Source: Squalus acanthias
Taxonomy: Eukaryota
DNA length: 64,000 bases
Direction of reading: 5' to 3'
NCBI GenBank assembly: GCA_030390025.1
Contig: JASTWF010000495.1
Location: 248,001-312,000, forward strand
Shown: one piece after another, positions 6,711-59,100 of the stretch
How positions within the stretch are numbered: position 1 is the stretch's first letter
Layout: each line of letters opens with the position of its first letter
Program-made: the position numbers and the translations under genes
The notes under the pieces: generated by a model
Database searches by the model: none
The model's input: only the letters and a program-made list of their open reading frames with translations
Told to the model about the DNA's origin: nothing

Positions 6711-6711
6711 A

Positions 6712-8740: not shown

Positions 8741-9482
8741 CCCTCTGACAGTGCAGCGCTCCCTCCGTACTGCCCCTCTGACAGTGCAGCACTCCCTCAG
8801 TACTGCCCCTCTGACAGTGCAGCACTCCCTCAGTACTGCCCCTCTGACAGTGCAGCACCCCCTCAGTACAGCCCCTCTGACAGTGCAGCACCCCCTCAGT
8901 GTTGCCCCTCTGACAGTGCAGCACTCCCTCAGTACTGCCCCTCTGACAGTGCAGCACCCCCTCAGTACTGCCCCTCTGACAGTGCAGCACCCCCTCAGTA
9001 CTGCCCCTCTGACAGTGCAGCACCCCCTCAGTGTTGCCCCTCTGACAGTGCAGCACTCCCTCAGTACTGCCCCTCTGACAGTGCAGCACCCCCTCAGTAC
9101 TGCCCCTCTGACAGTGCAGCACTCCCTCAGTACTGCCCCTCTGACAGTGCAGCACTCCCTCAGTGTTGCCCCTCTGACAGTGCAGCACTCCCTCAGTACT
9201 GCCCCTCTGACAGTGCAGCACCCCCTCAGTACTGCCCCTCTGACAGTGCAGCACTCCCTCAGTACTGCCCCTCTGACAGTGCAGCACTCCCTCAGTGTTG
9301 CCCCTCTGACAGTGCAGCACTCCCTCAGTGTTGCCCCTCTGACAGTGCAGCACTCCCTCAGTACTGCCCCTCCGACAGTGCAGCGCTCCCTCAGTACTGC
9401 CCCTCCGACAGTGCAGCGCTCCCTCAGTACTGCCCCTCCGACAGTGCAGATCTCCCTCCGTACTGCCCCTCCGATAGTGCCA
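8740..9482 (+). repeat. 33-bp minisatellite (CCCCTCTGACAGTGCAGCACTCCCTCAGTACTG)n, ~22 units
   Basis: Tandem repeat with an 11-aa period in the ORF track; only ~5-6 units at the paralogous site 58360-58540. Confidence 0.97.
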
Positions 9483-12360: not shown

Positions 12361-12825
12361 TCGTACATAAACCTTACCCGCACCTCACCTGGGAGTGTTT
12401 GACACCTACATGTAGAGGGATTTTTATTCTGTATTGATCCCATGCTGTGCCTGAGCTGGTGCACTTCATTGGGTAGTGTAAAGGGAGCTGTACACTGCAC
12501 TGAACACATTCTGTATCTGAGTTGGCTGTGCTTGGTGAACTAATTTAGAGGGAGCTTTTCTCTATCTAACCCGTGCTCTGCGAGTGTTTGATGGGACAGT
12601 GTAGAGGGAGCTTCACTCTGTATTCAACCCGTGCTGTACCTGCCCTGGGACAGTTTGATGTGACTGTGTAGCGGGATCTTTTCACTCTATCTAACCCGTG
12701 CTCTACCTGATCTGAGAGTTATTGATGCAACAATGTAGAGGGAGCTTTACTCTTTATCTAACCCGTGCTGTACCTTCCCTGGGATTGTTTGATAGGACAG
12801 TGTTAGAGGGTTATTTACAGTATAC

Positions 12826-18524: not shown

Positions 18525-20490
18525 CTCGACTGGGAGGGGCTTGGGCTGCTTTGTGACATCGTACCTGGCTGCTGCTGTTATTGGCTTCTGGCTCCTTTGT
18601 GATGTCACCTGGAGACAGGTTTACGCCCCTGGTTACACACCATCAGTGGCATTTCACTGTGGGAGGAGATGGAGTTGGCAGCAGATATGGAGAGTGAGTT
18701 TAATCAATATAAATAAGGGTAAAGAAAGAAAAGAACAATTTAATAGTAAAATAAGTAATTCAACCAAATGTCATTAATTGCAAATATATTGAACTAATCA
18801 TAGTCACAAAAACAGTCCCACTGTATTCCAGTTACAGATTCTAGAATTATTAATCTTTTTTATATTACAAGTTTCTTGGAGTGAGCAATATCTCAGGAAG
18901 GTGGAGAGAGAGAAGTCGAATCATCACCACACTAACTGGGACTGGAGAAATGTCACTGGGTTCACAGAGCAGATCTGGTGGGACAAGACCTCCAGTGTCG
19001 GAGATGGGATAAAGCGGGAAGCTTCAACAATGATTGGAAAGGTAAGGAACTCGACTGAGAATCCCATCAGTCCAGGATTTTGTCAAGGTGAGAGTCTAAC
19101 CAGCTACTGGGAGCTGTTCAACATCTGCCATTAGGCTCACCCTTTGATGCAGCAAGTTGACCGGAGCTTAACTCGTATATAAACCTTGCCCAGACCTCAC
19201 CTGGGAGTGTTTGACACCTCCGTGTAGAGGGATTTTTATTCAGTATCAATCCCATGCTGTACCTGAGCTGGTGTGCTTCATTGGGTAGTGTAAAGGGAGC
19301 TGTACGCTGCATTGAACACATTCTGTATCTGAGGTGGCTGTGCTTGGTGAACCAATTGAGAGAGAGCTTTACTCTGTATCTCGCCTGTGCTGTACCTGCC
19401 CTGGGAGGAATGTTTGATGTGACAGTGTAGAGGGAGCTTTAACCCATTATAGCAAATGATTTCCTCTCCAATTATTGCTCCGATGGTCCCTGAATCTGAC
19501 ACCCCTGATGATATCACTGATTATTGCTGCTGACACCACTTCCTATTACAGGGTATAGACTGGTTTCAGAACAGAGAGGAGGTTGTAATATCCCTGCCGT
19601 ATCCCAAAACCATTGCCTGAAGCTGCCACTCACCGCCAAAGGAGGAGGGAGACACACTGCCTGATATAAAGAGAAGGGAGACTTTGAGGTGTATAATGCA
19701 AGAGGTGGACATGGGGGCCATTGAATAGTGGGTCCTCACAGTTTGAGGATGGGAGGGAGAATTCGTGAGGGGTAATTTTGGGAGTCTGTGCTCCCTGTGG
19801 CACCAGTGAACTCACCCCGGGGAGAAGCTGTTCGAATGCACCGTGTGCACGAAGCGGTTTAACTCCTCCAGTTTGTTGCAGCACCAGCGGATCCACACCG
19901 AGGAGGCCACTTGAGTTGTACTGTGTGTGAAATGCAATTTGACACATCTGGTTAGCTTCCACATCAGTGAATTAACACCAGACAGAAACTGTTGAATGGA
20001 CTGGATTCACAACTGTCCCTGTTTCATTGAGATTCACAGAGTGAAACCAACTATAAACACTTGAGGTTTCAGTAATTTGATGTTTAGAATGGTCTCCTTT
20101 GCTGCAGTAACTGTGCCAATGAAGTTGATTATATCACTGCTCACAATCTCACGGCACAATATCGCACTTTCCCCCGGAGAGTTACAGAAATAAGTGTCGG
20201 CTAAAAACATTGTATTTCCACAAGGGAGAGTGTAATTATAGGAACAGGAGTCGGCCACTTAGCCCCTCGAGCTGTTCCGCCATTCAGTGAGATCATGGCT
20301 GATCTGTGACCTAACTCCATATACCCTCCTTTGCCCCATATCCCTTCATACCGTTGGTTAACAAAAATCTATCAATCTCAGATTTAAAATTAACAATTGA
20401 CCTCATCAATTGCCGTTTGCGGAAGAGAGTTCCAAACTTCGACCACCCTTTGTGTGTAGAAGTGTTTGCTAACTTCGCTCCTTAAAGGCC
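18525..20490 (+). repeat. Older, more diverged local duplication: 18525-19440 resembles 11725-12615; 19350-20490 resembles 1-1230
   Basis: Shared ORF translations (MEREKSNHHHTNWDWRN at 12093 and 18901; AQTPKIT...LLLWR at 276 and 19630). Confidence 0.9.
19801..19905 (+). pseudogene. C2H2 zinc-finger remnant
   Basis: [34 protein letters not shown] with an in-frame stop. A third fragment lies at 50192-50260. Confidence 0.85.
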
Positions 20491-25802: not shown

Positions 25803-28800
25803 CTGTTAATGGAAGGACAGGCATTAATAAACTGTTCATTGTCATAGAGAGAGAGAGAGCGAGACAGAGAGAAATAGAGAGACAGAAGGAGGGAGACAGA
25901 GCCAGAAAAAGAGAGACAGAGCCAGTCACAGAGTGAGAGACAGAGCCAGAAACAGAGANNNNNNNNNNNNNNNNNNNNNNNNNNNNNNNNNNNNNNNNNN
26001 NNNNNNNNNNNNNNNNNNNNNNNNNNNNNNNNNNNNNNNNNNNNNNNNNNNNNNNNNNNNNNNNNNNNNNNNNNNNNNNNNNNNNNNNNNNNNNNNNNNN
26101 NNNNNNNNNNNNNNNNNNNNNNNNNNNNNNNNNNNNNNNNNNNNNNNNNNNNNNNNNNNAGACAGTCACAGAGAGAGAGAGAGAGAGACAGAGACAGAGA
26201 GCCAGACAGACAGAGGGAGACACAGAGTAATAAACTGTTCAGTGTATCAGACACAGAATGAGCAACGATTCAGTGTTCCAGAGATGCAGAGGATGTTTGA
26301 TGATCAGCTTACTGGTTGTAGGATTGTAGCCGCTCTTCCCTCCCACTGTAAAACAAGGAACGCTCAGTGAGTGACGAGACACCGACAGTCAGAGAAGAGA
26401 GAGGATCACCCCCCAACGTGGCTCTGCCCACCCAGAGCCCCAGCCCCGCCCCCTCCCCCAGATCCTCTCGCCCTCACCCAGAGCCCCTCCCCCCTAACCC
26501 AGAGCCCCAGCCCCTCACCCTGGGCCCCTTCCCCTCACCCAGAGCCCCTCCCCCTCACCCAGAGACCCGCCCCCTCACCCAGATCCTCTCGCCCTCACCC
26601 AGAGCCCCGCCGCCTCACCCAGAGCCCCTCCCCCACACCCAGAGCCCCTACACCTGGGCCCTTCACCCTCCAGCCCAGTACACTTCCACCCACCACCGGG
26701 CCATCCCCCTGACACTGGGCCCCTGCCCCCCCCTTAAAGGACCCCGCCACCTCCAACCTGGCCCCTCCTCCCAATCCAGGCCCCTCCCTCCCTCCCCCAG
26801 TGGGGACGCGACCATTTTGTCTCCATTTCCTACCTTTCTTTCTGTAGATGACGACAGCTACAATGGTGAGAGCGATGAGCAGCCCGAGGACCCCAATCAC
26901 ACCAACAATAGCAGGGACCATGGACTCAGACTTCGGTACTGAGAGAGAGAGAGAGTGAGAGAATCAGAGACAGACAGGGATACACCGTGTCCTCATACTG
27001 TAATATCCCAAAATACACCGTGGACTGTAATATCCCAGGATCCACCGTGGACAGTAATATCCCAGGATCCACCGTGGACTGTAATATCCCAGGATCCACC
27101 GTGGACTGTAATATCCCAGGATCCACCGTGGACTGTAATATCCCAGGATACACCGTGGACTGTAATATCCCAGGATCCACCGTGGACTGTAATATCCCAG
27201 GATCCACCGTGGACTGTAATATCCCAGGATCCACCGTGGACTGTAATATCCCAGGATCCACCGTGGACTGTAATATCCCAGGATCCACCGTGGACTGTAA
27301 TATCCCAGGATCCACCGTGGACTGTAATATCCCAGGATCCACCGTGGACTGTAATATCCCAGGATCCACCGTGGACTGTAATATCCCAGGATCCACCGTG
27401 GACTGTAATATCCCAGGATCCACCGTGGACTGTAATATCCCAGGATCCACCGTGGACTGTAATATCCCAGGATCCACCGTGGACTGTAATATCCCAGGAT
27501 CCACCGTGGACTGTAATATCCCAGGATCCACCGTGGACTGTAATATCCCAGGATCCACCGTGGACTGTAATATCCCAGGATCCACCGTGGACTGTAATAT
27601 CCCAGGATCCACCGTGGACTGTAATATCCCAGGATCCACCGTGGACTGTAATATCCCAGGATCCACCGTGGACTGTAATATCCCAGGATCCACCGTGGAC
27701 TGTAATATCCCAGGATCCACCGTGGACTGTAATATCCCAGGATACAGCGGCTCGATAAATGCTGTGATGACATGAACATGTTGAAAGTTAATAATTCTTC
27801 CGCTCTCTCTGTAGCCTGACTCCAACCTGTCCCGGGCTGGGAGCTCAGCACTGACCCTCCCTCCTGTGGGCTTGTCCCGGGCTGGGAGATCAGCACTGAC
27901 CCTTCCTCCAGTGGGTCTGTCCCGGGCTGGGAGCTCAGCACTGACCCTCCCTCCTGTGGGCCTGTCCCGAGGCTGGGAGCTCAGCACTGACCCTTCCTCC
28001 AGTGGGTCTGTCCCAGGCTGGGAGCTCAGCACTGACCCTTCCTCCAGTGGGTCTGTCCCGGGCTGGGAGCTCAGCACTGACCCTCCCTCCTGTGGGTCTG
28101 TCCCAGGCTGGGAGCTCAGCACTGACCCTCCCTCCTGTGGGTCTGTCCCGGGCTGGGAGCTCAGCACTGACCCTCCCTCCTGTGGGTCTGTCCCGGGCTG
28201 GGAGCTCAGCATTGACCCTCCCCCTTGTGGGTCTGTCCCAGGCTGGGTTCCCTCTAACAGTGAGAGAGAGTCTTACCATAAATCACCATCACCATCTCCT
28301 CCAGCCCACTGTGCTCCACCTGACAGGAATACTCAGCCTGGTCCTTGGGGTCAAACTCCACCCATTTCTGGATCTGGTAGGTGCTGTCGTGATTGGGCAG
28401 GATCCCACTGGACTGAGTCTCATCGACCAACATTCCATCTCTCCACAGAGTCACCTCGATGGCTTGAGGGTAAAACCCGGTGACGACACAGGAGAGCCGG
28501 TTAGCTTCCCCCGGACGGATAAAGGACACGATGGGTGGGACTGAGAGAGAAAGAAAGAGGATTTAGTATAGGAACCGCGATATCGAGAGTCACTGCACCT
28601 CACTCGCCCACTCTCAGTCCCCCCTCACTCTCAGTCCCCCCCTCACTCTCAGTCCCCCCCTCACTCTCAGTCCCCCCCTCACTCTCAGTCCCCCCCCTCA
28701 CTCTCAGTCCCCCCCCTCACTCTCAGTCCCCCCCCTCACTCTCAGTCCCCCCCTCACTCTCAGTCCCCCCCTCACTCTCAGTCCCCCCCTCACTCTCAGT

Positions 28801-31800
28801 CCCCCCCTCACTCTCAGTCCCCCCCTCACTCTCAGTCCCCCCCTCACTCTCAGTCCCCCCCCTCACTCTCAGTCCCCCCCCTCACTCTCAGTCCCCCCCT
28901 CACTCTCAGTCCCCCCCTCACTCGCCCACTCTCAGTCCCCCCTCACTCGCCCACTCTCAGTCCCCCCTCACTCGCCCACTCTCAGTCCCCCCTCACTCGC
29001 CCACACTCAGTCCCCCCTCACTCGCCCACACTCAGTCCCCCCTCACTCGCCCACTCTCAGTCCCCCCTCACTCGCCCACTCTCAGTCCCCCCTCACTCGC
29101 CCACTCTCAGTCCCCCCTCACTCGCCCACTCTCAGTCCCCCCTCACTCGCCCACTCTCAGTCCCCCCTCACTCGCCCACTCTCAGTCCCCCCTCACTCGC
29201 CCACTCTCAGTCCCCCCTCACTCGCCCACTCTCAGTCCCCCCTCACTCGCCCACTCTCGGTCCCCCCCTCACTCGCCCACTCTCGGTCCCCCCTCACTCG
29301 CCCACTCTCAGTCCCCCCTCACTCGCCCACTCTCAGTCCCCCCTCACTCGCCCACTCTCAGTCCCCCCTCACTCGCCCACTCTCAGTCCCCCCTCACTCG
29401 CCCACTCTCAGTCCCCCCTCACTCGCCCACTCTCAGTCCCCCCTCACTCGCCCACTCTCAGTCCCCCCTCACTCGCCCACTCTCAGTCCCCCCTCACTCG
29501 CCCACTCTCAGTCCCCCCTCACTCGCCCACTCTCAGTCCCCCCTCACTCGCCCACTCTCAGTCCCCCCTCACTCGCCCACTCTCAGTCCCCCCTCACTCG
29601 CCCACTCTCAGTCCCCCCTCACTCGCCCACTCTCAGTCCCCCCTCACTCACCCACTCTCAGTCCCCCCTCACTCACCCACTCTCAGTCCCCCCTCACTCA
29701 CCCACTCTCAGTCCCCCCTCACTCACCCACTCTCAGTCCCCCCTCACTCACCCACTCTCAGTCCCCCCTCACTCACCCACTCTCAGTCCCCCCTCACTCA
29801 CCCACTCTCAGTCCCCCCTCACTCACCCACTCTCAGTCCCCCCCTCACTCACCCACTCTCAGTCCCCCCCTCACTCACCCACTCTCAGTCCCCCCCTCAC
29901 TCACCCACTCTCAGTCCCCCCTCACTCACCCACTCTCAGTCCCCCCCTCACTCACCCACTCTCAGTCCCCCCTCACTCACCCACTCTCAGTCCCCCCTCA
30001 CTCACCCACTCTCAGTCCCCCCTCACTCACCCACTCTCAGTCCCCCCCTCACTCACCCACTCTCAGTCCCCCCTCACTCACCCACTCTCAGTCCCCCCTC
30101 ACTCACCCACTCTCAGTCCCCCCTCACTCACCCACTCTCAGTCCCCCCTCACTCACCCACTCTCAGTCCCCCCTCACTCACCCACTCTCAGTCCCCCCCT
30201 CACTCACCCACTCTCAGTCCCCCCTCACTCACCCACTCTCAGTCCCCCCTCACTCACCCACTCTCAGTCCCCCCTCACTCACCCACTCTCAGTCCCCCCT
30301 CACTCACCCACTCTCAGTCCCCCCTCACTCCCCACTCTCAGTCCCCCCTCACTCACCCACTCTCAGTCCCCCCTCACTCACCCACTCTCAGTCCCCCCTC
30401 ACTCACCCACTCTCAGTCCCCCTCACTCACCCACTCTCAGTCCCCCCTCACTCACCCACTCTCAGTCCCCCCTCACTCACCCACTCTCAGTCCCCCCCTC
30501 ACTCACCCACTCTCAGTCCCCCCTCACTCACCCACTCTCAGTCCCCCCTCACTCACCCACTCTCAGTCCCCCCCTCACTCACCCACTCTCAGTCCCCCCC
30601 TCACTCACCCACTCTCAGTCCCCCCTCACTCACCCACTCTCAGTCCCCCCTCACTCACCCACTCTCAGTCCCCCCTCACTCACCCACTCTCAGTCCCCCC
30701 TCACTCACCCACTCTCAGTCCCCCCTCACTCACCCACTCAGTCCCCCCTCACTCACCCACTCTCAGTCCCCCCTCACTCACCCACTCTCAGTCCCCCCTC
30801 ACTCACCCACTCTCAGTCCCCCCTCACTCACCCACTCTCAGTCCCCCCTCACTCACCCACTCTCAGTCCCCCCTCACTCACCCACTCTCAGTCCCCCCTC
30901 ACTCACCCACTCTCAGTCCCCCCCTCACTCACCCACTCTCAGTCCCCCCTCACTCACCCACTCTCAGTCCCCCCTCACTCACCCACTCTCAGTTCCCGCT
31001 GCCCGTACTGCAGGTATTTCCTCAGCCACTCGATACACTCCTCCTCCAGGTAATTCTTCCACCGCAGTTTGCCGCCTGTGTCCTGGTCCCACTTGTTCTT
31101 GATGCTCTGTGCCCATGGGACTGGAGTGACCCACACCAGGTGATCCTTGTCGAAGCTGATGTAGTCTCGCCCGTCCCAGCCGAACTGGACAAACCCGCTC
31201 GTGGTCCCATCGTCCCTCAGGTCACAGCCAATCATCACCTGGTACGTGTGGATCCCTGTCAATCAAACACACACACAGCCAATCAGACCCAGTCCCACCG
31301 GGAGACCCGCCCCACTGTCCCTCAGCTGGTCAGACACACCTGGGAAGCAGGCGGTATTTAAAGGAACCCCCAACCCTGGTTCCAGATCTGTGCATTTAAA
31401 GGACCCCCGGAACCCGAGCTATGAACTAAAAACACCGAAAACCAATCTGCATTCTAAAAACTAAAGACATTGATGTCTAATAAAAGGAACCAAAGAACAT
31501 GGTATATAAATTTGAAGGACCCCCCAATTCCTGATCTAAATATTTTCGGGGCCTCCACCCCCACCCCTCGGTTCCTGATCTGTGTATTTAAAGGACTGAT
31601 GTGAGGCCGCTCCCCATTGGTCGCTGCCCCTGGTCTGGGAGATGGAGTGCCTCTTTTCCCGGGGACCCTGGCTCCCTGAGCTCGCTCCACTCCACAGCTC
31701 GCTCCCCATTCCCACCCGGCCACCCTCAACCCAGAGAAAGAGCCCGACCGTGGCGGGAGGGCGAGGACTCACCTCCCGACTGAATGGTCCGGGTCATGAG

Positions 31801-34120
31801 TTGCTGAATATAGGCCTTCTGATACACCTCCCGTTCCCGCACCAGCTGAAATTTCCGCTCCCAGGACTCGGGCCCCTCACTCTCCACCATCCACTGCTCC
31901 CGCGGGATCAACTCCTTCCGATCGCTGTCGTACGTAACAAACTGGACCTCGTCCACATACCCGACACCCACAAACTGCGGCAGACCGGGAATTGGAGTTA
32001 TGGTGGTAAGGAAATACCGGAGAGAGTGAGAGCCTGAAACACAGAGAGAGAGAGAGATATCAGGGCATGAACCCCAAAACACCAACCCCACCCACACACA
32101 CACAGACATAAGGGTATGAACCCCAAAACACCAAACAAAAACGCACACGGACATCAGGGCATGAACCCCAAAACACCAACCCCACACTCAGTGGACTCAG
32201 GGCATGAACCCCAAAACACCAACCCCCACACTCAGTGTGACATCAGGGCATGAACCCCAAAACACCAACCCCCACACTCAGTGTGACATCAGGGCATGAA
32301 CCCCAAAACACCAACCCCCACACTCAGTGTGACATCTGGGCATGAACCCCAAAACACCAACCCCCACACTCAGTGTGACATCAGGGCATGAACCCCAAAA
32401 CACCAATCCCACCCCCGAAACCAACAGACAGAGAGAGATAGACATTCAGGGCCCTCAACACTCCTGATGAGTCCCGTGTCCTACAATCTCCCTCCCCGAT
32501 CCCTGATCAGGGACTCCGAGGCCCACCCGTTCCTCCTCCAGACCCCCGCGACCCAACCCCATCCCTTACTGTAACCTGGAGCACTGACCTGCGCGGCCTC
32601 CTCCTGAGGTGCCATCTCCAGTGCACTGGGGTCCGAGGCCAAGAATCCGCGGGCTTCTCAGACCTCAGTGTTTGAGCGCGGGTTGTAACACAGTGTTGGG
32701 GGCGGGGGGCTCCCGAGGTTAACCCCAGACACTTGTATATCTCAGTTTGCTGACGACACTAAGTCAGGTGACCCAGTAAATTGTGTAGACGGGGGCAGCA
32801 AGTTGCAAAGGGTCATTGAGAGAGTAAGTGAGCGGGCAAAACTGTGGCAGATGGACCTCAATGTGGGCAACTGAGAGCTCATCCACTTTGGAGCTAAGAA
32901 AGTCAATCTGAATATATTCCACATGGTGGGAAACTCTGACCTGTGGAGGAGCACATGGAGAAATCATTAAAAGCCAGTGGACAGGTACAATAAGGATTGG
33001 GAAAAGCTCATGGAATGTTGGTCTTTATCTCGAGGGCTGGAATACAAGGGCTGGAAGTTCTGTTACAGCTGGACCACTCTCTGGTTAGACCCTATCTGGA
33101 GTAACTGTGTTCAGATCTGGGCATCGCACCTCAGGAAGGAGAAACTGGCCTTGGAGGGAATCCAGCGCAGATTCACCAGAGTGATACCGGGGCTTAGAGG
33201 GTTGAATTATGAGGACAGGTTGCATAGACTCGGCTTGTATTCCCTTGAGTATAGAAGATTGAGGGGGAATCTAATTGAGGTGTTTAAAATGTTACAAGGA
33301 TTTGATAGAATCAATCTGGGGAAACTAGTGCCTCTGGTGGGTGAATCAGGAACGAGGGGACAGAATCTTAAAATTAGAGCCAGACCGCTCAGGAGCGGAA
33401 TCAGGAAGCACTTTTACACACAAAGGGTAGTGGAAATCTGGAACTGTCTGCCCCAAAAGGTGTGGATGCTGGGGCTCAACTGGAGCTTTCAGACCTAAGG
33501 TCGATGGATTTATGTTAGGTCAGGATATCAGGAATATGGAGCAAAGGCAGGGAAATGGAGTTAAGATACAAATCAACCAGGATCGAATTGAATGGCGGAA
33601 CAGACTCGAGGGGCTGAATGCTCTACTCCTGTTCCTGTGGACCTCTCTCTCCACTCTCCAGCCCACTGCCCCTGTCCCTCACTCCCCGCCATGGTCTCTC
33701 TCTCTCCAGCCCCAGTACCCAGCCTGGCACTGAGACCCTCTCACACCCCATTACTCACTGACCGAGGGTTAATGCCCAGTACCCAGCCTGGCACTGAGAC
33801 CCATTCACACCCCATTACCCACTGACCGAGGGTTAATGCCAGTACCCAGCCTGGCACTGCCCCTCTCACACCCCATTACTCACTGACCGAGGGTTAATGC
33901 CCAGTACCCAGCCTGGCACTGAGACCCTCTCACACCCCATTACTCACTGACCGAGGGTTAATGCCCAGTACCCAGCCTGGCACTGCCCCTCTCACACCCC
34001 ATTACTCACTGACCGAGGGTTAATGCCCAGTACCCAGCCTGGCACTGCCCCTCTCACACCCCATTACTCACCTGCAGAGACCCCTCCACACAGAAGGGCC
34101 AGCACTATCAGTCCAATCAT
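25756..34120 (-). CDS. MHC class I heavy (alpha) chain, probably non-classical; spliced CDS join(34072-34120, 31773-32033, 30983-31255, 28277-28540, 26834-26938, 26313-26345, 25756-25802), 343 aa
   Basis: Exon lengths 49+261+273+264+105+33+47 = 1032 nt, in frame, with GT-AG phase-1 introns. Leader, a1 (GSHSLRYF), a2 (C..C, DGRDYI, KNKW, YLEEECIEWLRKYL), a3 Ig-C1 (LSCVVTGFYP...YSCQVEH), TM and cytoplasmic exons follow canonical class I organisation. Lineage (UAA/UBA/UDA etc.) not assigned. Confidence 0.95.
25959..26159. other. Assembly gap (~200 N) inside a GA-rich microsatellite in MHC intron 6
   Basis: Run of N flanked by (GA/GACA)n. Confidence 0.99.
26313..26345 (-). CDS. MHC-I exon 6, 33-nt cytoplasmic exon (VGGKSGYNPTT)
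   Basis: Acceptor TTTTACAG, donor GTAAGC; same 33-nt length and conserved Tyr as exon 6 of mammalian class I genes. Confidence 0.85.
26410..26675 (+). repeat. Imperfect ~19-20-bp C-rich repeat (CCCTCACCCAGAGCCCCTC) in intron 5
   Basis: Degenerate tandem units visible directly. Confidence 0.8.
26834..26938 (-). CDS. MHC-I exon 5, connecting peptide and transmembrane segment
   Basis: VPKSESMVPAIVGVIGVLGLLIALTIVAVVIYRKK; acceptor CTCTCAG, donor AAG|GTAGGA. Confidence 0.92.
26975..27745 (+). repeat. 27-bp minisatellite (CCAGGATCCACCGTGGACTGTAATATC)n, ~28 near-identical units, intron 4
   Basis: Tandem repeat; each unit has a BamHI site and the interrupted palindrome TCCAC-C-GTGGA. Confidence 0.98.
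27825..28250 (+). repeat. 45-bp minisatellite (CTGTCCCGGGCTGGGAGCTCAGCACTGACCCTCCCTCCTGTGGGT)n, ~9 units, intron 4
   Basis: Tandem repeat with a 15-aa period in the ORF track. Confidence 0.95.
28277..28540 (-). CDS. MHC-I exon 4, alpha-3 Ig C1 domain
   Basis: VPPIVSF...LSCVVTGFYPQAIEVTLWRDG...ILPNHDSTYQ...YSCQVEHSGL; pyrimidine-rich acceptor, donor ATG|GTAAGA. Confidence 0.96.
28598..30993 (+). repeat. 24-bp minisatellite (CCCCCTCACTCACCCACTCTCAGT)n filling intron 3
   Basis: Three sub-domains: ~15-16-bp units (28615-28920), ACTCGC variant (28920-29640), ACTCAC variant (29640-30993). The last unit overlaps the exon 3 donor. Confidence 0.98.
30983..31255 (-). CDS. MHC-I exon 3, alpha-2 domain
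   Basis: GIHTYQVMIGCD...GWDGRDYISFDK...KNKWD...YLEEECIEWLRKYLQYGQRELRV; both cysteines present; acceptor GACAG, donor TGG|GTGAGT. Confidence 0.96.
31773..32033 (-). CDS. MHC-I exon 2, alpha-1 domain
   Basis: GSHSLRYFLTTITPIPGLPQFVGVGYVDEVQFVTYDSD...PESWERK...LMTRTIQSG; acceptor GTTTCAG, donor GAG|GTGAGT. Confidence 0.96.
32056..32415 (+). repeat. ~45-bp minisatellite near the intron 1 acceptor
   Basis: (CATCAGGGCATGAACCCCAAAACACCAACCCCCACACTCAGTGTGA)n, ~8 units. Confidence 0.93.
32740..33640 (+). mobile_element. Degenerate CR1 3' portion in MHC intron 1, antisense to the gene
   Basis: FADDTK; LEGIQRRFTRVIPGLRGLNYEDRL; HFYTQRVVEIWNCLP. Confidence 0.9.
33705..34071 (+). repeat. ~60-bp minisatellite abutting the exon 1 donor, ~6 units
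   Basis: (CCCTCTCACACCCCATTACTCACTGACCGAGGGTTAATGCCCAGTACCCAGCCTGGCACTG)n. Confidence 0.95.
34072..34120 (-). CDS. MHC-I exon 1 coding part, signal peptide MIGLIVLALLCGGVSA
   Basis: ATG in context ACAATG (A at -3), hydrophobic core, donor CAG|GTGAGT; the final G joins GC of exon 2 to give GSHSLRYF. Confidence 0.9.
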
Positions 34121-34315
34121 TGTTGCTTCCCTCGACAGGCTGTGAGGAGCAGTTTACGGACAATCCTTTTCCAAGCGAGCAGCTCAGACCGTCATCTGTG
34201 CCCAGTGCGGACCGTGTGAGTCCTGAGCCCTGCTCTGATTCTGTGCCTCAGCCTGTGCCCTGGGTCTGTGGTTCCTGAGCCCTGCGCTCTGAGTCTGAGC
34301 AGCGCCCTGGACTGA

Positions 34316-34370
34316 CTATATTAAACCAGCAGATGTTCCTGGGCGCTCAGACACCTCCGTACTGATTGGT
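34316..34370 (-). promoter_or_regulatory. Core promoter: CCAAT box (34365-34369) and TATA-like TTTAATATAG (34316-34325)
   Basis: Motifs ~200-250 bp upstream of the ATG in the expected order; TSS inferred near 34290. Confidence 0.55.
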
Positions 34371-34494
34371 TCGACGTATGTTTGTGTCCAACCAGAATAA
34401 AACCAGGCTGGGAGTCGGCAGGCTCCGGGTAGGAGAGTCCCAGAGAGTTTGAGTAAAAGAGTCAGAAATAAACTTTCCAAACATCGTGAACTGT

Positions 34495-34536
34495 CCAATC
34501 AGAGAAATACTGCTAGGCACGTCATCAGTTGCCAGG
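34495..34536 (-). promoter_or_regulatory. X1-X2-Y module (RFX / CREB-ATF / NF-Y) of the MHC promoter
   Basis: Minus strand reads CCTGGCAACTGATG-ACGTGCCTAGCAGTATTTCT-CTGATTGG: X1 box, overlapping TGACGT (CRE-like X2), and Y box 20 bp after X1. Confidence 0.8.
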
Positions 34537-34584
34537 CAGGATGAGCTGAACTGAAATAAGTTTGATGCAGAAAGTGACAGAGGG

Positions 34585-35570
34585 AAGAACAGGAGGAGGC
34601 CATTCAGCCCCTCTGGTCTGCTCCGCCATTCAATTAGATCACTGGCTGATCTGTATCTTTACTCCATTTTCACGGCTTTTTCCATCTCCCTTGATACCGT
34701 TACCCAACAAAATCGATCAATCTTAGTCTTAAACACTCCAGTGGGACCAACACCCACAGCCTTTGGGGGAGAGAGTTCCAAATGTTTACTACCCTTTGTG
34801 AAAATCTGCTTCCTGATTTCCCTCTGAAACAGCCCAGCTCTAATTTTAAGATTAAGTCCCCTTGTTCTTGATTCCCCCACCACAGGAAATAGATTAGATC
34901 ACCCCTCAACCTTCGATACTCAAGGGAATACAAGACAAGTTTACACAACCTCCCTTTAAGCCCTGGTATAATTCCGGTCAATCTGAGCTGCTCCCCCTCC
35001 AAGGTCAATCTATCCTTCCTGAGGTGTGGTGCCCAGAACTGAACACAGTTACTCCAGATGGGGTCTGACCAAGGCTCTGGACACCTGAAGCATCACTTCC
35101 TCCACTTTGTATTCCAGCCCCCTCGAGATAAAGGCCAACATCCCATTGGACAGACTGGTGAAATGGGCGGACACATGGCAGATGAAATGCAATGCAGAGA
35201 AGTGTTTAAGTGCTGCATTTTGGAAGGAAGAATGAGGAGAGGCAATATAAACTAAATGGTACAATTGTAAAGGTGGAGCAGGAACAGAGACACCTGGGAG
35301 TGAACGTACACCGATCATTGAAGGTGGCAGGACAAGTTGATAAGGCTGTTAAAAAAGGCATTTGGGATCCTTGTCTTTATAAATAGAGACAAAAGCAAGG
35401 AAGTTATGCTAAACGTTTATAAATCACTGATTAGGCCCCAGCTGGAGTATTGTGTCCAATTCTGGGCCACACTTTAGGAAGGATGTCAAGGCCTTGGAGA
35501 GGGTGCAGAGGAGATTTACTCGAATGGTACCAGGGATGAGGGACTTCAGTTACGTGAAGAGATTATTCAG
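34585..35570. mobile_element. Two CR1 fragments in opposite orientation just upstream of the MHC promoter
   Basis: CR1 ORF2 C-terminal motifs on minus (34585-35150) and plus (35150-35570). Confidence 0.85.
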
Positions 35571-36977: not shown

Positions 36978-38792
36978 CCCCAGTAATAAACTGTAGACCC
37001 AGTAATAAACCGTATACCCAGTAATATACCGTACACCCAGAAATGAACCGTACACCCAGTAATAAACCGTACACCCAGAAATATACCGTACACCCAGTAA
37101 TAAACCGTACACCCAGTAATATACCGTACACCCAGTAATATACCGTACACCCAGTAATAAACCGTACACCCAGAAATAAACCGTACACCCAGAAATATAC
37201 CGTACACCCAGTAATATACCGTACACCCAGTAATAAACTGTACACCCAGTAATAAACCGTACACCCAGAAATAAACCGTACACCCAGTAACAAACCGTAC
37301 ACCCAGTAATATACCGTACACCAGAAATATACCGTACACCCAGTAATAAACCGTACACCCAGTAATAAACCGTACACCAGAAATATACCGTACACCCAGT
37401 AATATACCGTACACCCAGAAATAAACCGTACACCCAGTAATATACCGTACACCCAGTAATAAACCGTACACCCAGTAATAAACCGTACACTCAGAAATAT
37501 ACCGTACACCCAGTAATAAACCGTACACCCAGTAATATACCATACACCCAGTAATGTACCGTACACCCAGTAATATACCGTACACCCAGTAATGTACCGT
37601 ACACCCAGTAATGTACCGTACACCCAGTAATATACCGTACACCCAGTAATGTACCATACACCCAGTAATATACCGTACACCCAGTAATGTACCATACACC
37701 CAGTAATATACCGTACACCCAGCAATATACCGTACACCCAGAAATAAACCGTACACCCAGTAATAAACCGTACACCAGTAATAAACCGTACACCCAGTAA
37801 TATACCGTACACCCAGAAATAAACCGTACACCCAGTAATATACCGTATACCCAGAAATAAACCGTACACCCAGAAATAAACCGTACACCAGAAATATACC
37901 GTACACCCAGAAATATACCGTACACCCAGTAATAAACCGTACACCCAGTAATAAACCGTACACCCAGTAATATACCGTACACCCAGAAATAAACCGTACA
38001 CCCAGTAATAAACCATACACCCAGTAATAAACCGTACACCCAGTAACAAACAATACATCAAGTAATAAACCGCACACCCAGAAATAAACCGTACACCCAG
38101 AAATAAACCGTACACCAGTAATAAACCGCACACCCAGAAATAAACCGCACACCCAGTAATATACCGTACACCCAGAAATAAACCGTACACCCAGTAATAA
38201 ACCGTACACCCAGTAATAAACCGTACACCCAGTAATAAACCGTACACCCAGAAATAAACCGTACACCCAGTAATAAACCGTACACCCAGAAATAAACCGT
38301 ACACCCAGTAATAAACCATACACCCAGAAATAAACCGTACACCCAGTAATAAACCGTACAACCAGTAATAAACCGTACCCCCAGAAATAAACCGTACACC
38401 CAGTAATAAACCGTACACCCAGAAATAAACCGTACACCCAGAAATATACCGCACACCCAGTAATAAACCGTACCCCCAGAAATAAACCATACACCCAGTA
38501 ATAAACCGTACACCCAGAAATAAACCGTACACCCAGAAATAAACCGTACACCCAGTAATAAACCGTACACCCAGGAATATACCGTACACCCAGTAATATA
38601 CCGTACATCCAGTAATATACCGTACACCCAGTATTATACCGTACACCCAGTAATATACCGTACACCCAGTAATATACCGTACACCCAGAAATATACCGTA
38701 CATCCAGTAATATACCGTACACCCAGTAATATACCGTACACCCAGTAATATACCGTACACCCAGTAATATGCCATACACCCAGTAATAAACA
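36978..38792 (+). repeat. ~19-bp minisatellite (CCGTACACCCAGTAATAAA)n, ~95 units with interspersed variants
   Basis: Tandem repeat with variants AGAAATAAA, AGTAATATA and AGTAATGTA. Confidence 0.98.
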
Positions 38793-50191: not shown

Positions 50192-53100
50192 GATTCAGAC
50201 GCACAGTGTGTGCGAAGGGGTTTAATTTATCCTGCTGTTTGTTGTGACATCAGCAAATCCACCCTGGGGAGACCACTTGAGTTGTACTGTGTGTGAAATG
50301 AAATTTGACACATCTGGTTAGCTGCCACACCCGTGAATTGACACCAGAGAGAAACTGTTGAATGGACTGGATTCACAACTGTCCCTGTTTCACTGAGATT
50401 CATAGAGTGAAACCAACTAAAAGCACTTAAGGTTTGCAGTAATTTGATGTTTAGAATGGCTTCCTCTGCTGCAGTAACTGTGCCAATGAAGTTGATTATA
50501 TCACTGCTCACAATCTCACGGCACAATATCGCACTTTGTCCCTTTCACTTTCTGTGAAGTACAGATTAAGTGTCGGCTAAAAACATTGTATTTCCACAAG
50601 GGAGAGTGTAATTATAGGAACAGGAGTCGGCCACTTAGCCCCTCGAGCTGTTCCGCCATTCAGTGAGATCCTGGCTGATCTGTGACCTAACTCCATATAC
50701 CCGCCTTTGCCCATATCCCTTAATACATTTAGTTAACAAAACTATGTCAATCTCAGATTTAAATTTAACAATTGAACGAGAATTAATAGCCATTTGCGGA
50801 AGAGAGTTCCAAACTTCTACCACGCTTTGTGTTTAGAATTATTTCCTAACTTCGCTCCTGAAAGGCCTCCCCAAGCAGTGGAAATGGTTTCTCTCTATCT
50901 ACCCTATCAGCAACGCTCCCTCAGTCCCGACAGCCTGGGACCGGTTTCTTCAGTGATAAATTTTGCGTGTGTGTGAAACTGAGACTGGGCCGCACACCCA
51001 AAAAATTAGGCGGAACATTGCCTCTCGCTTCCCCTTAATATCTTGAAAACTTCGATCAAATCACCTCTGAACCTTCTAAATTCCAGAAATACAACCCGGG
51101 TTTGTGAAATCTCTCCTCGTAATTTAACCCTTAGAGACCAGGAATCATTCTGGTCAATCTACGCTGCACTCCCTCCAAGGCCAATATATCCTTCCTAAGG
51201 TGTGGTGCCCAGAACTGCTCCCAGAACCCCAGGTGTGGTCTAACCAGGGCTCTGTATAGCTGCAGCATAACTTCTACCCTAATAATAGATTCAAAGAAAT
51301 TCTAGTACATCGGGAGGCCACCCTTCTAGCTCAGTAACTGGGACCCTTTCACTCCAATCCCGTATTCCTCTTTTCCAAATGTCGATATTACAAGTTTGGG
51401 TCTGCTGTTCGATATTCTCTCGAGTACAGCGGTGCTCATCTCTCCTGTAAGCGGTCAGCGCCTTACGTTTAGGACTGTGTCCTCGCTGCCCGATGTCTAA
51501 TTATACAATAGTGTAGCCCCCAAGTGTAACATTAACACCCCCTTGTGGTCTGAACCAGATATCCGAGTCTTTTGTAGATGCCTCTCCAATCTTCCCACAG
51601 AGGTGCTGCAAGAACACTTGGGAAAATGCAAATCGATAAACTGCATTGGTTCACAGTGAGCGAACATACAGAGCAACAGTTCCAATGGGACTCCCTTCAA
51701 TCAGTGCAATGTGCCCACGTATTAACATCGAATAACCAACATGCTATGCTGCCCTACAGCAGTGGGTGTCTTGCTTGAGTTAAACCAAATTACTTAATTC
51801 CTAACCCTCAGAGTCTCAGTAAGAGCCCTCATAGTTCATAGAATCATAGAATGTTACAGCAGAGAAGGAGGCCATTCGGCCCATCGTGCCTGTGCCGGCT
51901 CTGTGCAAGAGCTATTCATAGTCCCACTCCCTGGCTCTGTCTCCACAGCCCAGCAAATCTTTCCCTTCAAGTATTGATCCAATTCCCTTTTGAAAGTTAC
52001 TATTGAATCTGTTTCCACCGCCCTTTCAGGCAGCACATTCCAGATCACAACAACTCGCTGTGTATTTTTTTTCCCCTTGTCGCCTCTAGTTTTCCCTTTT
52101 TAAAAACCTGACTGCCAACCTGTGGGTCTTTGTACTCTTGTCTCCTGTCCATCAGGAAGTTGATGCTTGGTTCGTGATTCTTCCTCATGTCCAGGGGTGA
52201 GTTCGAGAGCAGGAAGCTCACAGCAGGTCAGTCAGCATCGATGGAGAGATCAGAAAAGTTAATGTTTTGGAGCTCCTGAAATGGCAGCTTTTCCGTTCTC
52301 TCCACCCCACTGATGCTGAGTGACAGGTTGTGTTTCCAGCATTTTCTGTTTCTTGTTTGAAGCTGCTGAATCAAGGCTGCTGCTGTGCCTCTCTCCATCC
52401 CTCCCCATTTTGAAACCAGCTTCATGTAAAGCTCCACAGGAAGGGCCATTCCAACACGGCATGGTGGGAATGTTTCTTTGGAGTCCCCAAGTTGAGATCG
52501 TGACTCTCCTCTTGTTCCCAATCATCATGGGCAACAGATTTAATGTCTGACTCTTTAATGTATTTTCTGTAAATACCTATAGCCTTTCTTTTAAAATCTG
52601 TGTGGATTCACTTTCTTTTAGAATCCAGCACTTAAAACACAACTCTTTTCCAATCGTATCTGTGGAAAAATCATCAAAAAGTGTTAAAATGGGACTTTGG
52701 AACAGGCCATTCGGCCCCTTGTGCCTGTTCCACCATTCTGTGAGATCATGGTTGATCTGGACCTCAACTCCATTTACCCACCTTTTCACCATCTCCCCTG
52801 ATATCCTTACCCAGAAACATCTGTCAATCTCAGTCTTGGAAATTTCAATTGACCCCCAGCAACCACAGCCTTTTGGGGAGAGAGTTCCAGATTTCCACAA
52901 CCCTTTGTGTGAAAAAGTTCTTCCTGATTTCACTCCTGAATGGCCAAGCTGTAATTTTAAGATTTTGCTCCTTGTTTTGGTTTCTCTGTATCTACCCGAG
53001 CGAATCCTATTATCATTTTTAACACTTTGGTTGATCCCCCCTCAAGCTTCTAAACTCGGGCGAATACAAACCGAGTTTCTGTAACCTGTCCCCATAATTG

Positions 53101-56100
53101 AACCCTTTAAATTCTGGTGAATCTGCGCTGCCCCCCCTCCAAAGCCCAGATATCCTTCCTGAGGTGCGGTGCCCAGAATCCATCCTATTCCCCGATCAGT
53201 GCTTTTATAATCTCTGCCCCAACAATCACCCCTTGCAGAGCATTCCGTATCTTTGGAGAGGCTGGAGAAGCTGGGATTGTTATCATTAGAGCAGAGAAGG
53301 TTAAGGGGAGATTTGATAGAAGTGTTCAAAATGCTGAGGGGTTTTGAGAGAGTAAATAAGGAGAAACTGTTTCCACTGACAGGAGGGTCAGTAACCAGAG
53401 CTCACAGATTTCAGATAATTGGCAAAAGAACCAGGGCGGAGATCAGAAGACAGTTTTTTACGCAGAGAATTGTTGTGATCTGGAATGCACTGCCTGAAAG
53501 GTTGGTGGAAAAAGATTTAATCGTAACTTTCAAAAGGGATTTGGATAAATACTTGAAAAGGATAAACTTTCAGGGGAGTGGGACTAATTGGAGAGCTCTT
53601 TCAAAGAGCCAACACTGACACGATGGGCCGAATGGCCTCCTTCAGTGCTCCATGATCTCAATGAAAAGTTTTCTCCAACTTTCCCCTCCTTGTTCCCCTG
53701 CCAAACCTGAGCCGATGCACTTCTATTACAGCCTCACCGACTAATGTAACAATCCCTTGCCACCAACCCCCACAGAACTGTATAAATCGCTGAGGTTCCC
53801 CAGTAAGAAAAGCCCCAATTCTTTCAGCCATTCTTTATACTGTGTTCAGCTTGGATTCACAATCTTCATCTAGCCCTGTGTGTCCTGATCTCTCTCTCTC
53901 TTGAGCTGATTTATTGGTTGTATTCCAGTATAACCGGAACAACCTGTCCAAAATCATAAAGGATAGCTGATGGAGTTTTATATTTTATATCTGTATTCTT
54001 TCCATCCAGATTATGCCATTGGCAATACCGGACTCGGATGGTTATATTATTTAATAGATCGACAGGGATGTATCCCTGTATTGTTTGTTCTAATGATCTG
54101 CTCCAGATGTTTACTATCTGTTGTTGATTCACTAGGTGTACACGGTCTCGAGGCAATCAATTGCTCACATCTACTTGTTTCTCAGTTATAACAATCAGGA
54201 AAGGATGAACAGGCTGGGCCTTTTTTTTCTTCAAAAGATGAGGCTGAGGGTTGACCGAATAGAGGTGTTTAAAATTCTGAAAGATTTTGATAGATTAGAC
54301 AGAGAGAGTGTTTTCACTTGTGGGGAAGAGCAAAACTAGAGGCCATCAATATAAGATAGTTACCAAGAAAGCAAATAGGGAATTCAGAAGAAACTGCTTC
54401 ACCCAGAGAGTGGTGAGAATGTGGAACTTGCTACTGCGAGGAGTAGTTGAGGGGAATAGTATAGACGCATTTAAGGGGAAGCTAGATCAGTATATGAGGG
54501 AGAAGGGAATAGAGGGTTCTGCTGATAGAGTTAGATGAGCAAGGCTGGGAGGAGGCTCGAGTGGAGCATCAATGCTGGCATGGCCTGGTTGGGCCGAATG
54601 CCCTGTTTCTGTGCTGTATATTCTATGTAATTCTATTCTGGCCAGAGTTTTTAAGTCCACAATAGTCTCGATTTCTTCCAGAGCCAGTCCTATGATGTCC
54701 TGCGCCACCTCCCGACTGTCCGTATAGCCTCTCTGGGGATATTTTTAAATTTGTCTTCCTGAATTTCCAAATCCTTAACTGATGGGGTATTCCAACCAGT
54801 TGCTGTACCGAATCCTCCCATTCCCAACTTGTCTCATAGGGACCTTTTCCTTCCCTTCTCACTCTCTTCCTCCTCTGGATCATTCTGTGGTTCCTTACAG
54901 TCCAGGGCATGTTTTTTATATCCGTGCAGTAGATTGGCAAATTCCCAGTCCGGGATCAAGGTTTGTTCTTGGATCCTGAATTCAAAGAATCCTTGCTTGA
55001 ATTCTTGAAATTGATTGTTGTTTACTTCTTCTTCCCCAGTTCTCCTGCCACAGTACCTCGAAGTCTGAGCTTCCCTTCATACTGCAGTATCTTGTCTTAT
55101 GATCAAACTTTGGCAGACCGGTCCAATTGGTCTGGACTATCGGTGCCCATTTTTGTAAATCAATGACCAGTGGTTTTACCACATATTATACATACTGAAT
55201 TATAATACATAATACTCCTGGGTCAGGACTCCCCAATCAGTGGGCCAAATTTTATTTCTGGTCAGTTGCTTACCACTTTCGCATTGTCTCTTTGATAAGG
55301 TTTTGTTTGGTCCACATGGTCCCACTTACCCTCCATTTGTCATTTGGTGTCCTTAGTTCTAACCGTTTGGACCCAATGTCTCCATTACTGTGAACGGTGC
55401 TCTCCACTTGGGATACAGTGAGTGGGAAGGATTACCGAACCATTTTAACAGAACCTTATCACCAGCTAGGTACAAATACTCCATATGTGTAAGTTCCTGG
55501 TTTCCTTTTATTGTATCAGCAGCCCTTCCCAATTGGTGGGCCATCCACCCATTCATTTCCCAGATGAATGACAGACTCGGTTTGATCAACTACTCCCTTC
55601 AGAGAGTCCGACAACCCCTCGTACATGAGGTGCTCTGGGCGTCTCGTACTTCGCCCCGTCATTAGGGTCTCAATCCCAGAGCGCAGCAAGGAGTGGATCT
55701 GCTGGCCAGCGAGGCTAATGGCAACTTCACATCCCAATCCCTGCCATTTATTGCTCCAAATTTTCTGGAAATTATTTATAAAGTGCAGTTTGCTCTTTCC
55801 ACTGTCCCTGGTGACTGTGTAAATTGTGGAACTGGTTTTATGTCCAACAAATTCATGCATTGATCCATGACCTCTTTTGGCGAACCTCACTGAGTGGTTT
55901 ATTGTCCTACCAGAGCTTTAGCAATGGGGATAGCTTGCACCCATTTCGAAAACTAATCCGCTCCAAGTAAAATATATTTGTTTCCTATTGCGGTTGTAGT
56001 TTAAGGTTCTATCCAATCAATTTGTAATGAGCACCATGGTCCCTGTTTTAGTCGGGTCACAGGGTGGGTGGGGTTCCTTTATTTTGTAGTGATCATATTT

Positions 56101-59100
56101 ACATGGGCACGTGTGAGACATTGGTTCCAGCGTATTGTTCCATTCATTGCCATTTCTGGCCAACAGCCCAAGTCTCTCACCCACTGTAAGGTTTTCACTG
56201 CTGTTCAGCTGTTGAGGCATTGTGAGCTGTGTCCAGTAATATGGCCCAACTCTCTCAACCCTCCTTCGCTATTGGCAAATGGGTTGTATGGAACGCAGTT
56301 TCTTGTTCTACGGTCAACTTATTGAAATCATAAAATGATACAACATAGAAGGAGGCCATTGGGCCCATCGTGCCTGTGCCGGCTCTTTGGTCGAGCTATC
56401 CAGTTAATCCCACTCCCCTGCTCTTTCCCCATAGCCCTGCACATTTTCCCCTTCAAGTATTTATCCAATTCTCTTTTGAAAATTACTATTGAATCTGCTT
56501 CCACCGCCCTTTCAGGCAGTGCAGTCCAGATCACAATAACTCGCTGCATGAAAAAACTGTCTTCCCATCTCCCCCCTGGTTCTTTTGCCAATTATCTGAA
56601 ATCTGTTTGCTCTGGTTACTGACCCTCCTGTCAGTGGAAGCAGTTTCTCCTTATTTACTCTCACACCTCGATCAAATCTCCACTTAACCTTTTCTGCTCT
56701 AAGGAGAACAACCCCAGCTTCTCCAGTCTATCCCCGTAACTGAAGTCCCTCATCCCTGGTACCATTCCAGTAAATCTCTTCTGCCCCCTCTCCTAGGCCT
56801 TGACATCCTTCCTATAGTGTGGTGTATTGAACACAATACTCCAGCTGGGGCCTAACCTGTCTTTATAAAGGTTGAGCATAACTTCTTGCTTTTACATTCT
56901 ATTCCTCTATTAATAAAGCCAAGGATCCCATCTGCTTTTTAACAGCCTTCTCAACTTGTCCTGCCCCCTTCAAAGATTTGTGTCCATGCACCTCATGTCT
57001 CTCTGTTCCTGCACCCCCTTTAATTTTGTACCATTTAGTTCATATTGCCTCTTCCCACCAAAATGTATCAACTCACACTTCTCTCTGTTAAATTTCATCT
57101 GCCATGTGTCTGCCCATTTCACCAGTCTGTGTGTGCTCCTGAAGTCTGTTACTATCCTCCTCATTGTTCACTACATTTGAGTTTCGTGCCATCTGCAAAC
57201 TTTGAAATTATGCCCTGTATAGCCAAGTGTGAGGTGATACATTTTGGTAGGAAGAATGAGGAGAGACCATACACACTAAACAGTACAATTTTAAATGGAG
57301 TACAAGAACAGATAGACCTGGGGGTACTTGTGCACAAATCTTTGAAGGTGGCAGGACAGGTTAACACAGCAGTTAATAAACCACATGGGATCCTGGGCCT
57401 CATAAATAGAGGCAGAGAGTACAAAACCAGGAAGTTCTGCCAAACCTATACAAAACGCTAGTTCGGACTCAGCTTGTGTCCAATTCTGAGCACCACACTT
57501 TTGGAAGGACATGACGGCTTTGGAGAGGGTGGAGAGATTTACTATAATGGTTCCAGGGATGAGGGATTACAGTTCCGGGGACAGACTGGAGAAGCTGGGT
57601 TGTTCTCCTTGGGTCAGAGAAGGCTAAGAGGAGATTTGACAGAGGTGTTTAAAAGCATAAAGGATTTAGATGGTGTAAATAAAGAGAAACAGTGCTGAGA
57701 GGTTGTTTCCCCTGGCTGGCGAGTCTAGAACTAGGGGGAATAGTCTCAGGATAAGGGGTCGGCCATTTAAGACTGAGATGAGGAGGAATTTCTTCACTCA
57801 GAGGGTTGTGAATCTTTGGAATTCTCTACCCCAATGGGCTGTGGATGCTGAGTCATTGAGTGTATTTAAGGCTGAGATAGATTTTTTGGACTCTAGGGGA
57901 ATGAAGGGATCTGGGGATCCGGCGGGGAAGTGGAGTTGAGATTGAAGATCAGCCATGATCTCATTGAATGGCGGAGCAGGCTCGAGGGGCCGTATGGCCG
58001 ACACCTGCTCCTAATTCTTATGTTCTTAGTTTCCAATGGCTGAAGGCTCGATCACGAGAGGGCACAGATTTAAGGTGATTGGCAAAAGAACCAGAGGCGA
58101 CATGAACAAAAACATTTTTACATAACGTGTGGTTAGGATTTGGATTGCTCTGCCTGATAGGGTGGTGGATACAGATTTATTGTAGCCTTCAAAAGGGAAC
58201 TGGATAAATCCTTGAGGAGAAAAAATTGCAGGGATATGGGGTGCGAGCGGGGCAGTGGGACTAACTCGATTGCTCTTTCAAAGAGCCAGTGCAGACTCGA
58301 TGGACCGAATGGCCTCCTTCTGTGATGTTCTACTCTGTGATTCTATTCTATGATACAGCCCGTCTGACAGTGCAGCGCTCCCTCAATACTGCCCCTCTGA
58401 CAGTGCAGCACTCCCTCAGTACTGCCCCTCCGACAGTGCAGCACTCCCTCAGTACTGCCCCTCTGACAGTGCAGCACTCCCTCAGTACTACCTCGCTGAC
58501 AGTGCAGCACTCCCTCAGTACTGCCCCTCCGACAGTGCAATAAAATGTCCACGTTTACTTACAGTATTGAACCTGTGGATTTCAATCTCTTCCTTTCACT
58601 TTGGGTACACTGTAAATTTTAATAAATATTTATTTTCTGCCACTTTTTTCTCCTCCTCGTGTTGTAGTATCAAATGTTGTTTGAAAGTCCCTGCAGCAAG
58701 GGGTCCTGAGAGACGGGAACTATCTGGGTGGGACTGCACTCGCCTGGTTCCATTCTTATCTATCCAGTCGTAGACAGAAAATCACCTGCAATGGCTCCTC
58801 TTCCTGCTCCTGCACCGTTACTTCTGGAGTCTCCCAAGGATCTATCCTTGGCCTCCTTCTATTTCTCATCTACATGCTGCCCCTCGGCAACATCATCCCA
58901 AAACACATCAAGTTCCACATGTACGCTGACGACACCCAGCTTTACCTCACCACCACCTCTCCCAACCCCTCCACAGTCTCTAAATTGTCAGACTGTCCGA
59001 CATCCAGTATTGGATGAGCAGAAATTTCCTCCAACTAAATATTGTGAAGACCAAAGACATTGACTTCGGGCCCCGTCACAAACTCCGTTCGCTCGCCACC

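Follow-up and report, generated by a model that had tools for sequence, protein, structure and literature searches.

The window analysed here (the whole 64-kb stretch of DNA) contains a class I gene on the minus strand, with an X1-X2-Y module upstream of it on the same strand. Exon 1 (leader, 34120-34072, ATG at 34120) is 16/17 identical to the horn shark model P0007 and is followed by a GT donor. Exons 2 (alpha 1, 32033-31773), 3 (alpha 2, 31255-30983), 4 (alpha 3, 28540-28277) and 5 (transmembrane, 26938-26834) precede two cytoplasmic exons, 6 (26345-26313) and 7 (25802-25756, to the stop codon). These seven exons are joined at GT-AG junctions into a reading frame of 343 aa with one terminal stop and none internal, by which a pseudogene was ruled out. 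The best PDB match of both alpha 1 (E 4.5e-27) and alpha 2 (E 3e-32) was 6LUP, which we take to be a shark class I structure. No second class I gene was found in the 64-kb window.

All alpha 2 homologues among the matches listed (32/32) were named from cartilaginous fish, with 63-81% identity, and the nearest relative found among the matches listed was 77% identical. Six of eight anchor residues are kept (Y7, R84, K146, W147, Y159 and Y171), with Y59 replaced by S in alpha 1 and T143 by I in alpha 2. In a tree of 28 rows, which omitted 5 of the 32 homologues as partial or odd (P0004, P0005, P0012, P0028 and P0035) and contained no UCA, UDA or UEA rows, the gene was placed within a 99/99 clade of 24 rows including O19479 and O19480. 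Nearly the whole of this clade has lost Y59 and T143 alike; the four tree rows outside it keep all anchor residues. We take O19479 and O19480 to be the founding shark UBA sequences, hence the label UBA. A classical UAA identity was ruled out by the lost anchors and the tree position, and the gene is likely a non-classical, UBA-type shark class I gene, a character missed by the preliminary description. According to reviews, shark UBA is a non-classical family that arose from UAA and expanded (PMC12562908), and it occupies an MHC cluster of its own (PMC10751288).

For a multicopy UBA cluster, reaching from c4 to rxrb, the window provides one class I gene and a flanking duplication. The latter is segmental and direct, recurring at a period of ~50 kb with 97% identity (558-8920 vs 50192-58539; 9535-12807 vs 60321-63598), and would fit a multicopy class I cluster that has expanded recently. 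Three repeat ends (952-1012, 20215-20275 and 50591-50651) are identical over 61 printed bases, also beyond the usual tail, and the segment is therefore present at least three times. Introns 1 (33711-34071), 3 (28600-30997) and 4 (~26990-27760) and the upstream region (36979-38790) are filled by long minisatellites, the one in intron 1 beginning directly at the leader splice donor. An assembly gap of 201 N (25959-26159) lies in the last intron.

The X1-X2-Y module and chance expectation

The module lies on the minus strand in gene orientation, with the gene downstream and 416 bp from the X1 start to the ATG (34120). The X1 box, a predicted RFX site, is found at 34536-34523. Its end is overlapped by X2/site alpha (34524-34518), a predicted CREB/ATF site with TGACGT at 34524-34519. 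A 20-bp spacer (34522-34503) leads to the Y box/enhancer B (34502-34493), an inverted CCAAT and predicted NF-Y site, whose ATTGG starts 23 bp past X1. The motifs quoted in the preliminary description are all present in the window; its start at 34495 cut off two bases of the Y box, which ends at 34493, and the minus strand was left unstated. Within the X-Y spacer there is also a partial second X1 half-site (CCTAGCA, 34517-34511, minus strand).

The mouse references (H2-Eb and H2-K boxes) were taken from primers printed in PMC4374748, and the chicken reference from the annotated BF1/BF2 promoter alignment in the supplement of PMC10514180. The chicken query comprised 27 bases, with ends set by the printed line, and is common to BF1 and most of the BF2 rows seen. 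X1 matches the X box of H2-Eb at 12/14 positions, that of chicken BF1/BF2 at 11/14 and that of H2-K at 9/14. The match of 12/14 to an HLA-DRA X box given in the preliminary description was counted correctly; that HLA-DRA sequence itself was not found in the papers searched, and the printed H2-Eb box gives the same figure. The X2 TGACGT is identical to the chicken X2 and matches 5/6 bases of the site-alpha core printed in PMC1971071. The distance from X to ATTGG is 23 bp in the shark, compared with 23 bp in H2-K, 22 bp in H2-Eb and 24 bp in chicken BF1 (hand counts for the references).

A motif scan gave the shark register as the best in the window with both references. With the H2-Eb X box the top site was the shark X1, and the second-best site (11/14) was without a Y box. 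The chicken X/X2 line matched the shark in the same register at 21/27, again the top score in the window, with a runner-up of 16. The two references are independent, and both choose one register in 64 kb. An X match of at least 12/14 with ATTGG at 21-25 bp was obtained in 0/20000 promoter shuffles and 1/200 window shuffles, and the chicken score of 21/27 was reached in 1/20000 promoter shuffles and 1/300 window shuffles. The X1-X2-Y motif before this shark class I gene is more than chance. A first motif scan (1 match, 0/100 shuffles) was dropped as evidence because its pattern had been fitted to the site.

A convergent or chance match, in which the short RFX, CRE and CCAAT sites of this promoter had an independent origin, is in our estimate highly improbable. 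Single parts are indeed common by shuffling (TGACG alone in 9872/20000, two CCAAT cores in 2524/20000), and RFX, CREB and NF-Y occur together at thousands of human sites (PMC4381081), but the joint tests gave 0-1/20000, the site lies outside repeats, and the match runs into flank bases with no assigned factor that are common to chicken and mouse class I.

In a self-BLAST, no other match in the window was found over 34100-34549, by which a repeat origin of the module was ruled out. The upstream border of the promoter is formed by the end of an interspersed repeat (34587-35146, no strand assigned; up to 15 other window matches per position), presumably of a LINE/SINE-like family. Because self-matches are absent and the repeat starts at 34587, the promoter forms a 466-bp island of unique DNA. 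A second X1-X2-Y module was not found in the 64-kb window, and CpG enrichment was not detected at the module (o/e 0.35-0.37 vs 0.38 window-wide). A stop-free non-coding frame across the module was also submitted to a protein search and rejected, since its three matches (26-39% identity, 3-16 stretches each) were judged to be repeat-protein noise.

Elements upstream and downstream of the module

The 11 bp directly 5' of X1 (34547-34537, minus strand) share 9/11 positions with chicken, 8/11 with H2-K and 2/11 with H2-Eb (hand counts), with binomial tails of 0.00018, 0.0016 and 0.82, respectively. Adjacent to this flank is a proximal ISRE/IRF-like core, TTTCAGTTC (34556-34548, minus strand), which matches the H2-K ISRE core at 8/9 positions in the same orientation. 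By shuffling it was obtained anywhere in 413/20000 cases and within a 50-bp slot on the same strand in 34/20000; a looser ISRE core, AANNGAAA, was obtained in 3704/20000. A distal ISRE/IRF-like site, TCACTTTC (GAAAGTGA on the plus strand, as quoted in the preliminary description), lies at 34577-34570 on the minus strand (762/20000 shuffles) and is absent from the repeat tail in 7 other printed repeat copies. Both ISRE-like sites had been pointed out in the preliminary description and are present, although each is weak when taken singly.

At the canonical distance of 16 bp from X there is no clear S box, as had also been noted before (0/7 for H2-Eb, 2/7 for H2-K). We therefore describe an X1-X2-Y module and not a complete SXY. 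The S 7-mers were deduced from the primer swaps and the 16-bp distance given in PMC4374748, in which the published logo is an image. When 20 offsets (10-29 bp) were compared, the H2-Eb S box matched at most 3/7, and the H2-K S box had its top match (5/7) at 21 bp from X1, where a candidate class I-type S box is located (34564-34558, minus strand). Together with the bases upstream of it (34572-34558), 12/15 positions agree with H2-K (hand count; tail 1.9e-5 for a fixed register), a match that is suggestive only, because the register was chosen after looking. The S-like element sits half a helical turn off (21 vs 16 bp). The S-X spacer consists of four related 5-mers, two of which make up the proximal IRF core, and this would fit a 5-bp duplication that also made that core.

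Enhancer A (NF-kB) was not encountered upstream of the ISRE, where the repeat starts only 10 bp beyond the distal site. The retroelement-like end at 34587 occupies the place in which enhancer A would sit in chicken and mammals, and on inserting it may have cut the promoter off from a kB element further upstream. With the NF-kB consensus GGGRNNYYCC, the sole kB-like site noted in the 466-bp promoter is a weak one downstream of Y (34441-34432, minus strand; 1712/20000 shuffles).

Further downstream on the minus strand there is a second CCAAT box in forward orientation (34371-34362), 125 bp after Y as compared with 19 bp in chicken BF1, and two extended NF-Y sites within 466 bp were obtained in 33/20000 shuffles. 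A CRE-like/CCAAT pair (34378-34362, minus strand) consists of TACGTC and, after 3 bp, CCAATCAG, ~40 bp before a TATA-like sequence (34325-34316, minus strand) that was identified by reading the sequence; the pair could be a core promoter independent of the X-Y module. The DNA between 34312 and the ATG can be aligned (E 4e-14) with a class I gene model from the horn shark, over the 5' (N-terminal) extension of that model, and the last 50 bases before the ATG are read through by three further class I gene models. The TATA-like box and the gene-model alignments suggest a transcription start near 34290. The presumed 5' UTR (34312-34121, minus strand) is conserved with class I models of horn shark, white shark and cloudy catshark. 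The 5' extensions of models P0006, P0013, P0024 and P0034 end short of the X1-X2-Y module. In P0034, a classical-like horn shark gene, part of this 5' region has grown into a tandem repeat of 17 codons, and a protein search with its 5' extension matched only itself and one isoform.

Comparison with known class I and class II promoters

The known platform consists of RFX on X1, CREB/ATF on X2 and NF-Y on Y, and spacing matters (PMC11257985, PMC4381081, PMC3987962). X-Y promoter modules have been reported for class I genes of opossum (PMC1351924) and for salmon and trout UBA (PMC1971071, PMC6523485), and are annotated in chicken class I (PMC10514180). The presence of X-Y at a class I gene, treated as notable in the preliminary description, is thus the norm in class I promoters. 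X and Y boxes were reportedly described in the 1990s for the chicken b2m promoter as well. Among the papers listed, none could be recognised by title or abstract start as dealing with an MHC promoter, or its regulators, in sharks or cartilaginous fish; subscription journals and figures are poorly covered by such a search, and absence from print is not established by it.

Chicken BF1/BF2 is the closest published match overall, with 21/27 positions, or 24/29 when three more upstream bases are included. The order ISRE, S, X, Y and CCAAT in chicken BF1 is also that of the shark, with an S-like element in the place of S, and in both the ATTGG is followed downstream by a CCAAT. The shark differs from chicken in an X1 core nearer to class II, an S-like element ~5 bp further out, the lack of enhancer A upstream, where the repeat begins instead, and an X1-ATG distance about three times as long (416 bp vs ~130 bp in BF1).

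The SXY region of mouse H2-K, an NLRC5 target (PMC4374748), resembles the shark promoter in its 23 bp from X to ATTGG, the flank (8/11), the ISRE core (8/9) and the ISRE tail with S (12/15). It is unlike the shark in X1 (9/14 only), in the S-X distance (16 bp vs 21 bp in the shark) and in the Y flank. Mouse H2-Eb, a CIITA target (PMC4374748), agrees in X1 (12/14), Y (8/10, hand count) and spacing (within 1 bp), whereas the shark is without the class II S box (0/7), matches the H2-Eb flank at only 2/11 positions and has a TGACG site in X2 that H2-Eb lacks. For the salmon and trout UBA promoters, an ISRE, W/S, X2/site alpha and enhancer B are reported and no X1 box is named in the accessible parts of the papers (PMC1971071, PMC7573153), so that the likeness is one of description and not at base level.

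When X1 and Y are counted together, the shark is nearest to H2-Eb (20/24; chicken 16/24, H2-K 15/24). For the four bases after X1, the order is chicken 4/4, H2-K 3/4 and H2-Eb 2/4, and for flank, X1 and X2 combined (29 bp) it is chicken 24, H2-K 20 and H2-Eb 16 (all hand counts). On these comparisons the RFX and NF-Y cores appear class II-like, or simply near to good RFX and NF-Y sites, and their surroundings appear to be class I. The earlier term 'class II-like' accordingly applies to the X1 core and the Y box, and does not extend to the flank, X2 and the upstream elements, which are nearer to class I promoters. The class I specificity of the 11-bp flank is provisional, because one class II promoter (H2-Eb) was compared.

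Probable regulation and origin of the module

We consider it probable that a class I-type X1-X2-Y module stands before this intact shark class I gene and works as it does in mammals. Following the known pathway, X1 would be bound by RFX, X2 by CREB/ATF and the Y box by NF-Y, so that the three factors face the same side of the helix, and this platform would provide basal expression and the docking of an NLR co-activator. Interferon induction would be added by IRF1-type factors at the ISRE-like sites further upstream, and the downstream CCAAT and TATA-like boxes would set the start site. Interferon inducibility of the gene is plausible. A working platform is supported by the single register chosen by both references, the X-Y distance of 23 bp, inside the reference range of 22-24 bp, the element order of chicken BF1, the class I likeness over 29 bp, the intact gene and the two co-activators of the whale shark (PMC8455134); for CIITA, moreover, functional sites are marked by a high motif score together with correct spacing (PMC4381081). 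Against it stand the missing S box at 16 bp, the long distances from X1 to the ATG and from Y to the next CCAAT, the class II likeness of X1 core and Y box, the lack of CpG enrichment and the data on RFX5 and IRF1 in salmon cells, where RFX5 transcripts were absent and induction was apparently IRF1-driven (PMC7573153). The evidence base is one gene in one genome.

In the known pathway the S box dictates NLRC5 specificity, and the factor reading it is not yet identified (PMC11257985). In mouse reporters, NLRC5 accepted the X box of H2-Eb in exchange for that of H2-K and vice versa, whereas the S box was decisive; non-classical class I genes are among the targets of NLRC5 in the mouse (PMC4374748). 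The class II-like X1 is therefore no pointer to CIITA. NLRC5 appears the more likely co-activator of the two, because the surroundings are of class I type and a class II S box is absent. The recruitment of NLRC5 at all has, on this comparison, about an even chance, because the S-like sequence lies 5 bp out of place.

Control by CIITA in antigen-presenting cells through a class II-type module, as the title of the preliminary description suggests, is quite improbable. It would account for the H2-Eb likeness of X1 and Y, the X-Y spacing agrees with that of CIITA-regulated boxes (PMC4381081), and the whale shark has CIITA (PMC8455134). However, the H2-Eb S box is matched at 0/7 positions at 16 bp and at no more than 3/7 over the 20 offsets, the H2-Eb flank at 2/11, specificity is not set by the X boxes (PMC4374748), and in mice neither endogenous CIITA nor endogenous NLRC5 is redundant with the other, with the effects of CIITA on class I coming from overexpression (PMC11257985).

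The displaced S-like element also bears on a third alternative, that the module was inherited and co-activator docking was lost when a gain of 5 bp between S and X broke the phase, with expression now driven by the IRF sites and the proximal CCAAT and TATA boxes. This course of events would explain the 21 bp in place of 16 and the composition of the spacer from related 5-mers; parts of SXY are lost in other non-classical promoters, such as HLA-G (PMC3987962) and in opossum (PMC1351924), and the salmon data favour IRF1 (PMC7573153). We nevertheless regard it as unlikely, for X1, X2, Y and their spacing are all intact where decay would be expected to erode them, many XY boxes without W/S are bound by CIITA (PMC4381081), and the chicken promoter figure marks two alternative S positions, which argues for a loose placement of S outside mammals (PMC10514180). 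A module in working order, as in mammals, is thus the reading that we prefer.

By parsimony, the module would go back to the last ancestor that sharks share with bony vertebrates. An origin before that split is to be expected, because X-Y modules occur in mammals, marsupials, chicken and teleosts and because orthologues of both CIITA and NLRC5 are present in the whale shark (PMC8455134); in the accessible part of an elephant shark supplement (PMC3964593), CIITA, NLRC5 and RFX did not occur. The earlier proposal of a correctly spaced X1-X2-Y at a shark class I promoter that predates the split is borne out to this extent. The class I RFX/CREB/NF-Y switch would thereby be as old as the last ancestor common to all jawed vertebrates, as specialists expect; a demonstration in sharks was not found in the search described above. 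What is seen here is a known switch in the oldest lineage with an MHC, and the known mechanism is unchanged.

A more far-reaching version, tentative and unlikely when taken as a whole, would see the promoter as a mosaic that preserves the ancestral switch, with class II-like RFX and NF-Y cores set in class I flanks that, after ~450 million years, can still be recognised in chicken and mouse. In that case the 11-bp flank would represent a class I element kept by conservation and a candidate part of NLRC5 specificity, and the 5-bp duplication would have rewired the UBA gene, at once shifting S out of phase and giving rise to an IRF site.

Of more use as a lead is the class I alignment of shark, chicken and mouse, in which the conserved bases between S and X offer targets for mutation; the natural variant in S-X spacing lends itself to testing the phase rule.
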